This document shows, piece after piece, positions 12,210-16,817 of a stretch of DNA of 59,919 bases (position 1 is the stretch's first letter; the number at the start of each line of letters is the position of its first letter). The DNA comes from a virus. Both the position numbers and the translations under genes were made by a program. Location of the stretch: UHGV virus genome UHGV-0342645, one strand, 5' to 3'. The notes beneath the pieces were generated by a model. It did no database searches and was not told where the DNA came from. It saw only the letters and a list, made by a program, of their open reading frames with translations.

Positions 12210-12539
12210 CTATTTAAGATAAAGATTTTCAATCATATCGTTTTTCGGGTCGTTAATATACTTCCCGAAGACAGCTTTCTTACCCTGCGGCCCGTGGAAC
12301 ATTTCGTACACAATACGGGTCCGTAACACTTTACGGTTTTCCCCGCCACAAATTGGAGCAAGACTAATCCTAGCTTGCAGATGAGCAGCGCATATATCCT
12401 TAGCTTCGTCACCTTTAGTTATGCCATATTTTTTAAAAGACTTCTTCCAGAATAAATCCCCGTCGCGGTATTCAAAATATTTATTCCAATTAGGTTCCTT
12501 CTTCCACCAGTGCTTTTCATAATCCCATTCAAGGCTCAT
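12210..12539 (-). CDS. hypothetical protein, possibly a degenerate homing-endonuclease-like DNA-binding protein
   Basis: Lone minus-strand gene in the plus arm. ATG 12539 with GGAG SD. FEYRDGDLFWKK...RISL...RIVYEMFHG recalls N-terminal regions of phage HNH/AP2 endonucleases, but no HNH motif is present. Confidence 0.45.
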   Translation of the reverse strand: MSLEWDYEKHWWKKEPNWNKYFEYRDGDLFWKKSFKKYGITKGDEAKDICAAHLQARISLAPICGGENRKVLRTRIVYEMFHGPQGKKAVFGKYINDPKNDMIENLYLK

Positions 12540-12755
12540 AGTCACTCCTCTTGATGATTTAATTTGCGCGCGCTACGTAAGACAGCCTCCTTAGACTTGT
12601 TATCGCGGCTGCGGCTACCCGTGTTACCGGACCGCTGCAATAACTCCTCTCTGCCTTAACGCAGATTATAGCTTGATATACCTTCCGATCACAATAGTTC
12701 AATAAATTTGCCTCAAAAGCACTTGACTTCTCGTTTTTGATCTGCATCCGTTCAG

Positions 12756-13063
12756 GTTTATGAAAGTTTATAGAGTTTATATTGTGAAGTATAAACAATC
12801 ACATAATACCAATAGGTACTATATACATTAATAATAAATCCTTATTTTATATATATTTATAGTTATTATTAATATTAGTTTAATTTGGTTTATTTTAGTT
12901 AGTTGACTGAAAGTTTATAAGTTTATAGGGGTATACTCCCAACTTTTTTCAGATAATTAATAGTATAGTAGTGATAGTGGTTTTTGCACGTTTTCACTAC
13001 TACTACTAATTATTTGTTTGAAAAGGGGGTAATAAGGGGAAACCGTAAACTTATAAACTTTGC
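12756..13063. repeat. GTTTAT(A) iteron-like repeats
   Basis: GTTTAT at 12756, 12766 and 12775. AAAGTTTATAAGTTTATAGG at 12910..12929. Its inverted copy AAACTTATAAACTTTG at ~13048..13063. All lie in very AT-rich DNA. Confidence 0.6.
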
Positions 13064-13229
13064 TCTGTGTAAAAATAAAAAATTAGTGAATAGTGAGATA
13101 GTGGTTCATAGTGGCAAACTTTTACAAAGCGAGTAACGACGCACTATACACATTTTGCCCACTATGTACGCCACTAAGCACTATATTAAAACAATCCTTG
13201 CAAATAGCTAATGTCTGTTTTATAGTGGC
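12961..13229. repeat. ATAGTG(G) / CACTAT motif array
   Basis: ATAGTGG at 12974, 13098, 13108 and 13222. TAGTG at 13084 and 13091. Inverted CCACTAT/CACTAT at 13142, 13159 and 13179. Confidence 0.6.
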
Positions 13230-13253
13230 TTCACCAGTTGACTAGGAGGATTT

Positions 13254-13982
13254 ATGAGCGAAGAAACTATTACGTCTAAAACTGTGGTTAAAGATTTGTG
13301 CTATGTTGCATGGGTTGCTCAAGCTTGCTCGCAGTTGCGCGGTGCACCAACCAAATCACAGGCGCTTGCTATGGTGGAGAATTACTTCAACGATGATTTG
13401 GAACAGCCAGTTAAAAAATCTGTAAGACCGAAAGCGGGAAAGCTGGATGCAGAACGGGCGACTTTTCTTGCATGGGTTAGCGATAAGCTGGGCCATGAAC
13501 TGGATGCCAAAGAGCTTCGCAGCTATACGGGCAAATTCAATTACCACACGGGCAAGGGTAACGACCCATATGAAGAAGCATTTAAGGTGAAAGAAGATAA
13601 GGGTAAGGTAGGGCGCAAGGAAAACGTCGAGCTTAAAGCATGGATAGAGCGCCAAGCTTTGCTCAAAGGGGATTCTCTGACAGATAAGGAAGCGGATAAA
13701 TTGACACATCGTTGGTACAGGATGCGCCGGAGCGGCGATATCCAGGACTGGGATAATCGCGGTCGCTGGCCTACCTGTTCCCTGCACCATTACGAAACCG
13801 CTACCGCTATCCGTGTCAAGCTTGGCGCTCATTGGGTAGACCTTGCAATATACAAGGATGCTGAGCAGGCTAAAAATATTCTTCCGAACATTGATAATTG
13901 GCTTATTAGCTTAAGACAGGGAAGGGAACCACAGGACGTTATGTTAGAAGTTGGTAACCATATTATCACAACTCCGCACTAA
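13254..13982 (+). CDS. hypothetical protein (C-terminal AP2-like segment)
   Basis: 242 aa with AGGAGG SD. First gene after the iteron region. C-terminus AIRVKLGAHWVDLAIYKDAEQAKNIL. Confidence 0.65.
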   Translation: MSEETITSKTVVKDLCYVAWVAQACSQLRGAPTKSQALAMVENYFNDDLEQPVKKSVRPKAGKLDAERATFLAWVSDKLGHELDAKELRSYTGKFNYHTGKGNDPYEEAFKVKEDKGKVGRKENVELKAWIERQALLKGDSLTDKEADKLTHRWYRMRRSGDIQDWDNRGRWPTCSLHHYETATAIRVKLGAHWVDLAIYKDAEQAKNILPNIDNWLISLRQGREPQDVMLEVGNHIITTPH

Positions 13983-14047: not shown

Positions 14048-14251
14048 ATGGATCACGAATCGGAATTTGATTTGAACTACATAACGGCGGCGGAAATCGA
14101 AGACCGTTATGGCATATCTAAGTTTAAGATGTCGCGCATACGTGATAGCATCCCGGGCGCTATCAGAATTGCTAACCAGTACATCTACAAACGTTCCTTA
14201 GCGGTGCCCGCCCTGGAAAAGATGCAAGGCGATAAGCGTCGGAGGTCATGA
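14048..14251 (+). CDS. small helix-turn-helix DNA-binding protein
   Basis: ATG 14048 with GGAGGG SD. ITAAEIEDRYGISKFKMSRIRD resembles AlpA/excisionase-type HTH. Confidence 0.45.
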   Translation: MDHESEFDLNYITAAEIEDRYGISKFKMSRIRDSIPGAIRIANQYIYKRSLAVPALEKMQGDKRRRS

Positions 14252-14463
14252 TGGTACTTAGTGAAGTTGGACAAAATAAGCTTCGGGAGCAGGGTTGGTT
14301 TATTGGGCATTACATGCATTACCGCACAGCTTATATTATGGTTGCTGGGACTATTGTTTACCTTGGACATTATGAGAGCTATCTGGATGCAGAGAAAGTC
14401 ATCAACAAGACTAAGGAGCACTTATTAGTCGCCATCGGTTGCGCAATGGTTAGTTCTCAGTAA
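14248..14463 (+). CDS. hypothetical protein (AP2-like segment)
   Basis: 71 aa with an ATGA overlap with the upstream gene. Contains GTIVYLGHYESYLDAEKVI. Confidence 0.55.
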   Translation: MMVLSEVGQNKLREQGWFIGHYMHYRTAYIMVAGTIVYLGHYESYLDAEKVINKTKEHLLVAIGCAMVSSQ

Positions 14464-14474
14464 AAGGATAAATC

Positions 14475-16817
14475 ATGGAACTGTTTCCCGCTGAAATTAA
14501 AGCTTTCCCACAATGGGCGGTCGCTGATGCGGATAAAAAGCCGCTTGTATGGGACAACGATATCGGACGTTTGATGGCGGCGGACGTTACCGATCCGGAT
14601 ATGCTAATGACGTTTGAAGCTGCCAAAGGTTGCGCTGCTCATTTCAATAAACCTTATATTGGCTTCGTGCTTACTGCGCAAGACCCGTTCACCTGCATCG
14701 ACCTGGATGTAAAGAACGCAACCAATGAACCTGATCCCAAGAAGCACACGACGCCGGAACAGTTGCGCCGCTTCGAACAGATTATGACCGCGTTCGATAC
14801 TTACACCGAAGTAAGTCGCTCAGGATTGGGCGTCCACCTGTGGTTAAGAGGTAACATCGGTAAAGGTCGTCGGCGTGATGGTGTCGAGGTTTATAGTCAG
14901 GAGCGTTTTATTATCTGCACGGGTAATCCTGTCTATAACAAACCAGTTGCAGAACGTGATCATTATCTTACTATGCTTGTGAATGAAATTGATCTTCAGC
15001 GCAAGACATATGAAATTGAACTGGTAGAAAAAGATCCGGTAGAAGACGACGCAACTATTCACCAGCGTGCGCTTGAAGCAGACAACGGCGATAAGTATGC
15101 ACGCCTCTTCAATGGTGAATGGGTTGAAATGGGATTCCCTTCCCAGTCTGAAGCAGATCTTGCCCTTATTTCCATGTATGCATTCTACACAGAAAGTAAT
15201 GAGCAATGTCGTCGTCTCTTCCGTTACAGTGCACTGGGCAAACGTGAGAAGGCTAATAAGAACAATGTTCATATTGACCGTTGTTTACGCATGTGTCGTG
15301 GTCGCATGGAACGTGAGCGCATTGCTCAGGAAAACGTAGCGGCGCTGGCGCGGGATTACGCTGCCCGTATGCAAGCCGCACACAGTGCAATGCAGCAGGT
15401 AACAGAAATGCCTGTAACCGTCGAAACAACACAGGGGCAGACAGTAGTTGCAGAAAGCACATCCGTTGATGCAACAGCTATTGAATGGCCGCCGGGGCTT
15501 GCTGGTGAGCTTGCTAAATATATATACAAAGCATCCGTCAGACCAGTGAAAGAAATCTCTATTGTTACCTCGCTCGGATTTATGGCTGGGGTATGCGGGA
15601 AAGTATGGCAGATCCCGCAATCCGGTCTTAATGGATATTTTGTCTTAATTGCTCGTTCTGGTGTTGGTAAAGAGACGTTGAACAGTGGGCTGTCTAATAT
15701 AGTTAGCCAGATTCAGGACCAGTTTCCGCAGATTCATAGCTTTGTATCTTTTGATAGATGCGCTTCTGGATCTGCACTGCGTAAATCTTTTGCAGACAAA
15801 CAATCTTTTATCAACCTGAATGGTGAGTTCGGTAAGATTATCAAAGCAATGGCAACGGCTCCAGCAGGCTCGCCGATGCAAAGTTTCAAGAATGACCTTA
15901 CCGATGTTTATCAAAAGTCCGGTCAGATGTCTATCGTTGGTGGTATGTCTTATTCTGATAAGGCTAATAATACTGAAGCTCAACAAGGTGTGGCATATAG
16001 CATCATGGGCGAAACGACACCGGATACGTTCTTTGAAGCATTAACCCGTGAAATGATGGAGGATGGATTCTTATCCCGTTTCCATGTTGTACGCTATGAA
16101 GGTGATCGACCGCCTTTAAACAAAAATCAGCAGACTACAATGGATCAGCATTTGAAGGACATGGTGTGCCATCTTGTTAACCACACTTTAGTAACAATGG
16201 CAAAGCATCAGAGTATTGAAGTACAGTTTAGCCCGGATGCGGAAGCATTATGCGATCAGTTTAACGATGAATGTGATCGCAATATTAACGCAACCAAAGA
16301 CGAAGCAATCCGTCAGCCGTGGAACCGTGCTCACCTGAAGGTCTTGCGACTTTCTGCCTTGTTAGCCGTGGGTGAGAACTGGATCAATCCGGTGGTACAA
16401 ACCTATCATGTGCAATGGGCTTTGGACTTCGTGCGTCATGGGCAGGATATTATTATGAAGGAATGGCATAGCGGAGGCATTGGGACTAATGATGAAGCTC
16501 GTATCCGTACTATGTGTCAGGTCTGTGTGAATTATCTAACTAAAGACTGGGTGAAAGTTAAACGTGTAGATTTGCGCAAAGAAGGTATTATCACGCGAGG
16601 GGATATTACTACGCGTCTTGCAAGTAAGTCCGCGTTTAAAAACTATCATCACGGATTATCCGCTGCAATCGAGTCTACAATCAAGGAGATGGTTGCTATG
16701 GGTGCACTTGTTCCGGTAACACGGGAGGAGACTATTAAACTGGGATTTACTGGGGTAGCTTGGCGCATTACGCAAGATGTTGAAGGAATTATGGCAAACT
16801 TAGGTGAAGAGGAATAA
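14475..16817 (+). CDS. bifunctional DNA primase-polymerase / helicase
   Basis: 780 aa. N-terminal AEP prim-pol signature (FTCIDLDVK, GVHLWLRG), PriCT-like SQSEADLALISMYAFYT, and a central P-loop ARSGVGKETL. Confidence 0.8.
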   Translation: MELFPAEIKAFPQWAVADADKKPLVWDNDIGRLMAADVTDPDMLMTFEAAKGCAAHFNKPYIGFVLTAQDPFTCIDLDVKNATNEPDPKKHTTPEQLRRFEQIMTAFDTYTEVSRSGLGVHLWLRGNIGKGRRRDGVEVYSQERFIICTGNPVYNKPVAERDHYLTMLVNEIDLQRKTYEIELVEKDPVEDDATIHQRALEADNGDKYARLFNGEWVEMGFPSQSEADLALISMYAFYTESNEQCRRLFRYSALGKREKANKNNVHIDRCLRMCRGRMERERIAQENVAALARDYAARMQAAHSAMQQVTEMPVTVETTQGQTVVAESTSVDATAIEWPPGLAGELAKYIYKASVRPVKEISIVTSLGFMAGVCGKVWQIPQSGLNGYFVLIARSGVGKETLNSGLSNIVSQIQDQFPQIHSFVSFDRCASGSALRKSFADKQSFINLNGEFGKIIKAMATAPAGSPMQSFKNDLTDVYQKSGQMSIVGGMSYSDKANNTEAQQGVAYSIMGETTPDTFFEALTREMMEDGFLSRFHVVRYEGDRPPLNKNQQTTMDQHLKDMVCHLVNHTLVTMAKHQSIEVQFSPDAEALCDQFNDECDRNINATKDEAIRQPWNRAHLKVLRLSALLAVGENWINPVVQTYHVQWALDFVRHGQDIIMKEWHSGGIGTNDEARIRTMCQVCVNYLTKDWVKVKRVDLRKEGIITRGDITTRLASKSAFKNYHHGLSAAIESTIKEMVAMGALVPVTREETIKLGFTGVAWRITQDVEGIMANLGEEE

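Follow-up and report, generated by a model that had tools for sequence, protein, structure and literature searches.

What is the function of the longest non-coding stretch of a Seuratvirus genome, and which proteins read the short repeats that fill it? The question is raised by UHGV-0342645, a stretch of 59,919 nt (hereafter the window) that is essentially the complete genome of a Seuratvirus (Queuovirinae), a virulent Escherichia coli siphophage (the window phage). Upstream of its replication operon lies a conserved element of 589 bp (12665-13253) that carries two families of short repeats, GTTTATA (family 1) and ATAGTG (family 2), together with the most AT-rich DNA of the genome. Clusters of either family are found only here, no other 300-bp segment of the genome being comparable; the layout of the element is kept among about 20 relatives or loci compared (designated by phage names or by the L-numbers given to the loci), and each family co-varies with one protein of the adjacent operon. 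This observation lies far beyond chance (binomial P for the clustering, both families, about 1e-7 to 1e-11). A first-pass annotation of this DNA had proposed either an origin of replication or operators for a small neighbouring protein as one reading for all the arrays. Each of these two roles seems to fit one family, so that the earlier proposal is supported in part. With moderate confidence, the element can be viewed as a helicase-recognised origin joined to a control or operator region for an orphan protein, p242.

Family 1 and the AT-rich core appear to account for the origin half of this proposal, in a helicase-loaded layout; the primase-helicase encoded downstream had not been considered as a binder in the first-pass annotation. 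GTTTAT occurs in eight copies within 12756-13061, and the region holds 6 of the 20 genomic copies of GTTTATA (P 3e-8, binomial) and 5 of the 8 copies of AGTTTATA. The features concerned are the following.

12665-12712, minus strand: block I, nearly invariant, carrying a leftward sigma-70-like TTGTGA-18-TATAAT (12694 to 12665).
12713-12753, plus strand: conserved block with TTGACT and GATC, 98-100% identical in aligned relatives except Dru_SM1.
12756, 12766 and 12775 (direct) and 12790-12796 (inverted), no single strand: left cluster of family 1, GTTTAT(G/A).
12800-12900, no strand: AT-rich core, a candidate DNA-unwinding element.
12901-12914: invariant GTTGACTGAAAG, which precedes and overlaps the right doublet.
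12910-12925, plus strand: right doublet of family 1, AAAGTTTATAAGTTTA, with copies starting at 12913 and 12921; outer left arm of a palindrome.
13046-13061, minus strand: inverted doublet of family 1, TAAACTTATAAACTTT.
14475-16817, plus strand: primase-helicase of 780 residues, with an NrS-1-like prim-pol domain followed by a DUF3987 helicase.
16455-16814, plus strand: part of this gene that codes for the C-terminal ~120 residues, the candidate binder of family 1.

The order of the family-1 sites is +,+,+,- to the left of the core and +,+ then -,- to its right. The lowest-GC 100 bp of the genome (12821-12920) has 13% GC, the lowest value elsewhere being 25%, which bears out the AT-rich runs noted in the first-pass annotation at 12830-12900. 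All the positions given there are present, give or take a few bases, including three GTTTAT units at 12756-12780 and a doublet at 12910-12929. The inverted copy at 12790-12796 had been overlooked, and the inverted 15-mer placed at about 13048-13063 is actually a perfect 16-mer, 13046-13061 being the exact complement of 12910-12925.

Unbiased k-mer counts and class-specific patterns divide family 1 into three sequence classes.

Class 1, GTTTATA: window, KurtStettler, Seurat, CAjan, slur01, L010, L014, L015, L055, L060.
Class 2, GTTTTG(C/T)GA: SA80RD, Greed, L020, L021, OddieOddie, L035/L058.
Class 3, AATTTTATG: L012, L013, L017.

The class-1 pattern is present in 5-9 copies in class-1 phages and is absent from the other classes. 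All three classes have two or three direct copies and one inverted copy to the left of the AT core, and one or two direct copies at its right edge; most phages carry further inverted copies about 130 bp farther right, those of classes 2 and 3 being copies of their own motif near the position of 13046-13061. Conservation in relatives, which had been suggested as a check on the repeats, is one of layout in the three classes of family 1, the types of family 2 being variable.

The classes of family 1 are mirrored in the primase-helicase. Its residues 1-350 are 88-100% identical throughout the nine phages compared, but residues 661 to the end fall into three classes that are 99-100% identical within and 37-45% between. 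These C-terminal classes coincide exactly with the three repeat classes, with no exception in the ~20 loci, a correspondence established by comparison only. The DNA that separates the classes is sharply bounded. Relative to OddieOddie, divergent and unalignable DNA stops at the primase stop codon and the following 500 bp are 97% identical; this DNA just downstream of the gene is repeat-free. In the intergenic region, only the repeat patches differ between classes (40-51%), the flanking blocks being 77-100% identical; the left cluster (12756-12796), for instance, is 51% identical to that of class-2 phages. Comparison with SA80RD and Greed gives identities of 98% for block I, 100% for the block after it and 93% for GTTGACTGAAAG, the family-1 patches again showing 40-51%. 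The AT-rich core is 97-98% identical within class 1, and its first ~70 bp are near-invariant across classes. Given these sharp mosaic boundaries, the changes are confined to the repeat patches and, separately from these, to the 3' part of the helicase gene. That two separated patches change together, with conserved DNA between them, speaks for co-selection and against hitch-hiking. A protein and the sites to which it binds would be expected to leave such a pattern, and it argues that the C-terminal part of the primase-helicase probably binds the family-1 sites. The process could then be viewed as follows: the C-terminal domain of the phage's own primase-helicase would bind the family-1 repeats, and the helicase would load itself at these sites, open the AT-rich core and prime synthesis.

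This scheme recalls that of the Staphylococcus aureus pathogenicity islands (SaPIs), whose origins have an AT-rich centre and, divided equally between its two sides, 6-12 iterons of five or six nucleotides. The iterons, at least two per side and in opposite directions, are bound by a C-terminal winged-helix domain; it belongs to a self-loading helicase that in SaPI5 forms a fusion with a primase (PriRep5) (PMC9371898). The window element likewise has multiple short repeats of 5-7 nt, in 6-12 copies, split by an AT-rich centre with repeats of opposite orientations on both sides; a cognate relationship between repeat and helicase is seen in both cases (here by comparison of the ~20 loci only), and specificity would similarly be a matter of the helicase's C-terminal domain, the helicase being self-loading and, in some cases, fused to a primase. 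PriRep5 (7OLA) is also the best sequence match of the primase-helicase among solved structures, but over the primase domain only, the window helicase being of the DUF3987 type (PHROG 3022, Pfam DUF3987 / NrS1-1_pol-like_HBD). The SaPI origin lies directly downstream of the helicase gene rep, whereas the window element is upstream of the operon, 1.2-3.7 kb ahead of the helicase gene, and the DNA that follows this gene is conserved at 97% between classes. Furthermore, the window is a 60-kb virulent phage and not a satellite, and it has a second, interleaved repeat family with an orphan protein. The alpha protein of P4 offers another parallel, as primase, SF3-type helicase and C-terminal origin-binding part are combined in one polypeptide and the origin consists of short repeats in both orientations. 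This logic of the P4 ori and alpha (short repeats, C-terminal origin-binding) is said to have been worked out by Ziegelin et al. in 1993, and the structure of the C-terminal winged-helix origin-binding domain of P4 alpha (1KA8) was reportedly solved by Yeo et al. in 2002 (cited in PMC2777425). However, P4 alpha has a DnaG-type primase and the window protein an archaeo-eukaryotic prim-pol, a profile search found no sequence similarity between the window C-terminal region and the P4 origin-binding domain, and P4 needs a second cis region (crr), whereas the window genome has no second cluster.

Family 2 is a different case. All five exact ATAGTGG/CCACTAT 7-mers of the 59.9-kb window lie within 12974-13228 (P 9e-11), and the conserved element holds 8 of the 24 genomic copies of ATAGTG (including one at 13090) and 12 of the 69 copies of TAGTG (P 4e-12), additional 5-mers being found at 12969 and 13084 and, on the minus strand, at 12995 and 13172. 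The first-pass annotation had counted at least seven copies of the 7-mer; five are exact and those at 13142 and 13179 match at only six of seven positions (GCACTAT). The spacing of 7-10 bp that it gave agrees with that of the direct run. The features of this half are listed below.

12910-13061, no strand: nested imperfect palindrome of 152 nt, with the family-1 doublets as outer arms and family-2-type units as inner arms (12961-13008).
13084-13114, plus strand: direct array of TAGTG units at 13084, 13091, 13099 and 13109 (7, 8 and 10 bp from start to start).
13142-13185, minus strand: inverted array of CACTAT/CCACTA units at 13142, 13159, 13171 and 13179.
13198-13226, plus strand: weak rightward promoter-like TTGCAA-17-TATAGT (9/12 matches), with its -10 inside the family-2 copy 13222-13228.
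13244-13249, plus strand: Shine-Dalgarno AGGAGG, followed by the ATG at 13254.
13254-13982, plus strand: gene of p242, an orphan protein of 242 residues and candidate binder of family 2.
14048-14251, plus strand: gene of p67, a protein of 67 residues with a MerR/excisionase-like winged helix-turn-helix.

The window and Seurat have primase-helicases that are 98% identical over all 780 residues, but their p242 and p67 proteins share only 42% and 58% identity, respectively. Of their intergenic regions, the left halves are 94-100% identical and the right halves unalignable; for Seurat-type phages in general, the DNA left of 12945 is 94-100% identical except for the family-1 left cluster (74%), and the family-2 arrays show 30% identity. 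Seurat carries 11-12 copies of ATAGGG in a similar arrangement, replacing ATAGTG, and ATAGGG units stand in place of the direct array 13084-13114 in Seurat-type phages. A second, more divergent lineage repeats both types: L012 has ATAGTG and a p242 that is 65% identical to that of the window, L017 has ATAGGG and a p242 at 44%. L014 combines a TAGGGGTA motif with yet another p242 variant. OddieOddie-type phages lack both p242 and the family-2 arrays and keep p67, the freed space being filled by extra family-1 copies and a third array (TTATTCC). Since these phages have the core element without p242, this protein is dispensable for the core element. These data make p242 the best candidate for the putative binder of family 2, in line with the earlier suggestion of operators for the product of 13254-13982, one copy lying over the promoter-like site of the operon. 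The product of 14048-14251, proposed in the same annotation as another possible binder, is p67, which follows neither family; that of L017 is nearer to those of the ATAGTG phages.

The p242 protein belongs to PHROG 27223, which has no functional annotation, and has about ten homologues among 5.8 billion proteins, all on Seuratvirus-like contigs. An exhaustive profile search of 1.8 billion representative proteins gave three hits, namely its own family and one weak repeat hit. Pfam, NCBIfam and PHROGs provided no function, the PDB no sequence match and fold comparison no convincing match, and p242 was found to resemble neither Rep-type initiators nor members of any known family. The predicted model is helical, with a C-terminal unit of three strands plus a helix. 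An AP2-like C-terminus was suspected by eye, but hhalign gave no confirmation, with a probability of 0.1 for the match to the AP2-domain protein of OddieOddie.

In the model that we favour, family-2 repeats would be sites for p242 on the inner arms of the palindrome, the direct run, the inverted run and the copy over the -10. By binding them, p242 would set the expression of the operon encoding p242, p67, p71 and the primase-helicase, and it might modulate origin firing. The element would therefore hold two separate protein-recognition systems. In Seurat-type phages, the -35 TTGCAA is kept, and the family-2 type of these phages has a copy over the -10 position. More generally, the rightward sites near the gene start vary between types, each overlapping the repeats of its own type, and the leftward site of block I is the only promoter-like site common to all four phages scanned.

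Several points weigh against this model. The three family-1 classes correspond to only about two independent swaps, and class 3 is confounded with a lineage that is more diverged overall. A Pfam scan and a PDB profile search with the C-terminal 140-160 residues of the helicase returned nothing meaningful (the sole PDB return, a CBS-domain match, was considered spurious). Identity clusters of p242 separate the motif classes only roughly (55-87% within, 42-55% between). The promoter-like sites are no commoner than in shuffled sequence and are all mere consensus matches. Neither an exact DnaA box (TTATNCACA) nor a site for the integration host factor (IHF; WATCAANNNNTTR) is present in 12546-13253, where two one-mismatch DnaA-like sites are found at 13066 and 13144. 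The cumulative GC skew has its minimum near 13 kb, but this is confounded with the change of transcription direction. Lastly, no experiments on the replication of any Queuovirinae phage, or on binding, were found in the literature searched.

The main rival is a purely transcriptional role, according to which all arrays would be operators (for p242, p67 or others) and replication would start elsewhere or have no fixed origin, for example by being recombination-dependent. We regard it as unlikely, although some observations favour it. Family-2 copies overlap weak consensus promoter-like sites in the window, Seurat and SA80RD types; class-2 family-1 copies also adjoin the gene start, one of them over a -35-like hexamer; and the MerR/excisionase-like fold of p67 is typical of regulators. 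There is also a precedent in the plasmid pRN1, in which the small repressor ORF56 binds DNA upstream of the operon that encodes it, ahead of ORF904, a prim-pol/SF3 helicase/winged helix protein whose C-terminal DNA-binding domain was proposed to recognise the origin (PMC2777425). The window has the same succession of a small (putative) DNA-binding protein gene and a prim-pol-helicase gene; however, pRN1 is an archaeal plasmid in which no iterons were found and whose origin is downstream of the gene, and p242 and p67 are unrelated to ORF56. Transcription control leaves unexplained why family 1 tracks the C-terminal part of the helicase and not a regulator, and why its sites bracket the near-invariant, most AT-rich 100 bp at 350-500 bp upstream of the gene start. 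A general regulator would moreover be expected to have other targets, yet neither motif is found in any other intergenic region of the genome.

It is still less probable that p242 is the true initiator, with the ATAGTG arrays as iterons in the manner of iteron plasmids and P1 oriR and with p242 recruiting the primase-helicase. The AT-rich core, direct run, inverted run, promoter and gene order do resemble those of iteron replicons, and arrays and p242 move as one cassette between near-identical phages. As in P1 oriR, F, pSC101, R6K and the lambda ori, an AT-rich region lies beside arrays of short repeats, and inverted copies over the adjacent gene's promoter-like site may point to auto-regulation; in iteron plasmids and P1 oriR, the origin is fired by direct repeats, and inverted ones lying over the rep promoter bring about auto-repression. 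The exchange of origin and initiator as one specificity module among relatives is also known from lambdoid phages. Nevertheless, the window repeats are of 6-9 bp and not of 17-22 bp and are intergenic rather than inside the initiator gene, there is neither a Rep-type (WH1-WH2) nor an O-type initiator, and the region 12546-13253 lacks the exact DnaA box and the IHF site of iteron-plasmid origins. In OddieOddie types, without p242 and its arrays, the AT core and the family-1 sites are still present, as is the primase-helicase, and p242 resembles no Rep-type initiator.

The 152-nt palindrome could also act as a structure, either as a regulatory RNA or as a DNA cruciform or hairpin, the repeats being merely its arms; this we consider very improbable. 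The palindrome unites the GTTTAT doublet, the inverted doublet and one ATAGTGG copy (inverted repeats I1, I2 and I5). Its folding z-scores are -5.5 as DNA and -5.9 as RNA (overall -5.5 to -7.6 in the window), and most of the relatives folded are likewise predicted to form a long hairpin of significant z despite their differing arm sequences, its shape not being uniformly kept. On the other hand, the region gives only a chance-level Rfam hit (E 0.55), RNAalifold finds no consensus structure or pairs in ten relatives, no promoter-terminator pair surrounds the palindrome, and the inner part is quite different in OddieOddie; neither a known family of structured non-coding RNA nor conserved compensatory structure was thus found. 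Moreover, the arm units also form non-palindromic direct runs elsewhere in the region and, as the arms are made of the same units as these runs, change on both arms is expected from motif replacement alone. Two other sequences inside the palindrome belong to neither repeat family: GGGGTATAC (12928-12936), conserved in motif classes 1 and 3, and GGGGG-N6-GGGG (13025-13039), recognisable in most relatives as GGGG-N5-7-GGGG.

That the arrays are a packaging site (pac or cos) for a small terminase is hardly credible: the p67 fold also resembles the N-terminal DNA-binding domains of small terminases and the SLUR76 record begins a few hundred bp upstream, but record starts are uninformative because most records begin at the terminase gene by convention, the phage encodes its own small terminase about 9 kb away, and the repeats co-vary with the replication proteins and not with the terminase.

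To return to the origin and operator model, it may be extended to a 'two-key' locus, in which the helicase C-terminus with family 1 and p242 with family 2 would be swapped independently between near-identical Seuratviruses. This swapping would reflect diversifying selection on replication specificity, and p242 would represent a novel type of protein that binds specific DNA sequences. We put this forward as a speculative proposal that may well prove wrong. Possible drivers of the swapping may be competition between co-infecting relatives, escape from origin-hijacking satellites and escape from initiator-sensing host defences.

No replication origin has been described before in Queuovirinae, and nothing on their origins or promoters was found in the literature searched. 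Several members of the widely used BASEL collection belong to this subfamily, whose DNA carries 7-deazaguanine modifications. Should the model be correct, it would provide a precise candidate origin for Queuovirinae, a likely recognition code in which three repeat classes are paired with three helicase C-terminal classes, and a candidate function for the p242 family. It would also extend the logic of self-loading primase-helicases (P4, SaPI; proposed for pRN1) to virulent siphophages with prim-pol/DUF3987 fusions, homologues of which occur in 283 phage records with hosts of many genera.

The limits of the element were drawn from its relatives. The region and its flanks are about 92% identical to those of KurtStettler (Bas22), the KS_A3/A8/S4 phages, SHIN8 and SLUR75, and 73-76% to those of distant members. 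The window is reversed relative to the KurtStettler orientation: the minus strand is used from 1 to ~10.3 kb, with structural genes at the window start, then the plus strand from ~10.9 to 39 kb for early and replication genes, and then the minus strand again for structural genes. No phage RNA polymerase gene and no tRNA were found in the window genome. A non-coding counterpart of 590-830 bp is present in every relative examined, its conservation across relatives being a patchwork, and in the KurtStettler annotation no intergenic gap is longer than the equivalent one, in agreement with the rank that the first-pass annotation gave to 12546-13253. This whole stretch indeed lacks a credible gene, but its first part does not belong to the element:

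12546-12664, minus strand: upstream (5') part of an inserted HNH endonuclease cassette, outside the conserved element.

Homology to KurtStettler, which lacks the cassette, and to most relatives begins at 12665; the cassette is common to the window, SLUR76, Dru_SM1 and L014. Its gene (12210-12545, minus strand) encodes a homing endonuclease matching PHROG 99, HNH endonuclease, and probably starts at the ATG at 12540, after GAGGAG, rather than at the GTG at 12545. The cassette (12210-12664, minus strand) abuts the invariant block I; it has the orientation of the conserved leftward promoter-like site and lies immediately downstream of it. Block I is 96-98% identical in seven of eight aligned relatives, the low value of Dru_SM1 being due to an inserted array, and in a homology search of the region it was the sole part retained in OddieOddie-type phages (97.7%).

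No credible gene was found in 12546-13253. The open reading frame (ORF) 13111-13245, annotated as bas22_0069 in KurtStettler, was rejected, as its substitutions are distributed 3/5/3 over codon positions, with no third-position bias, and as it contains stop codons in SA80RD, Greed and Dru_SM1. The minus-strand ORF 12559-12798 spans the boundary of the HNH cassette and hence is not a credible gene. The TTGACT at 12903 was rejected as a -35 since the sole conserved downstream hexamer (TATACT/TATACA) is 23 bp away in most phages examined, too far for sigma-70; when read from the sequence, the TTGACT of block 12713-12753 likewise has no -10 hexamer at sigma-70 spacing.

The slot between p67 and the primase-helicase is variable. 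In the window, KurtStettler, SLUR76 and L015 it is occupied by the gene of p71 (14248-14463 in the window), a protein of 71 residues in which a faint AP2-like stretch can be seen; in SA80RD, Dru_SM1 and L014 it is occupied by an HNH endonuclease gene, and in Seurat and Greed it is empty (slot coordinates: 5645-6169 in L002, 4564-5097 in L014). The third repeat family, TTATTCC/GGAATAA, is found in phages without p242 (OddieOddie, L022: 2050-2100, 2340-2415 and 2705-2720) and inserted in Dru_SM1 (L004). In OddieOddie, the array adjoins a gene for a 95-residue protein, in which Pfam gives an AP2 domain below threshold (E 2e-4).

Searches for further motif classes yielded two loci by an IMG/VR protein scan and ten loci, with no new class, by a metagenome scan with block I. 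A scan of IMG/VR with a 20-mer of the AT core, CCTTATTTTATATATATTTA, returned 27 stretches, only three of which are from Seuratvirus; the rest, exact matches in 24 contigs (among L025-L051), are intergenic in an unrelated family of AT-rich prophages. These matches look like a low-complexity coincidence because the flanks are unrelated. Among more distant phages, the Craquatrovirus PSTCR7 has no comparable element beside its primase gene. The Nonagvirus JenK1 (L062) has ~1 kb of non-coding DNA (130-1165) before its replication operon, with an AT-rich part at 760-1000, three direct copies and inverted copies of CTTTATAAAT, and three copies of GCAAAAACTTYGCA near the operon start. This design is analogous to that of the window but consists of unrelated sequence, and it therefore seems general in the subfamily.

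A last motif, the 9-mer TTAACCACA/TGTGGTTAA, is one mismatch away from the DnaA box TTATCCACA. It occurs at 24 sites of the genome for 0.74 expected, on both strands, mostly in genes and about once per 2.5 kb (for example at 399, 6853, 11033, 13283, 14839, 16177, 20066 ... 57072). It is equally over-represented in other Seuratvirus loci (23 sites in KurtStettler), but not in Nonagvirus or Craquatrovirus loci. Every type of p242 has one copy 30 nt inside its gene, where it encodes an invariant VVK.

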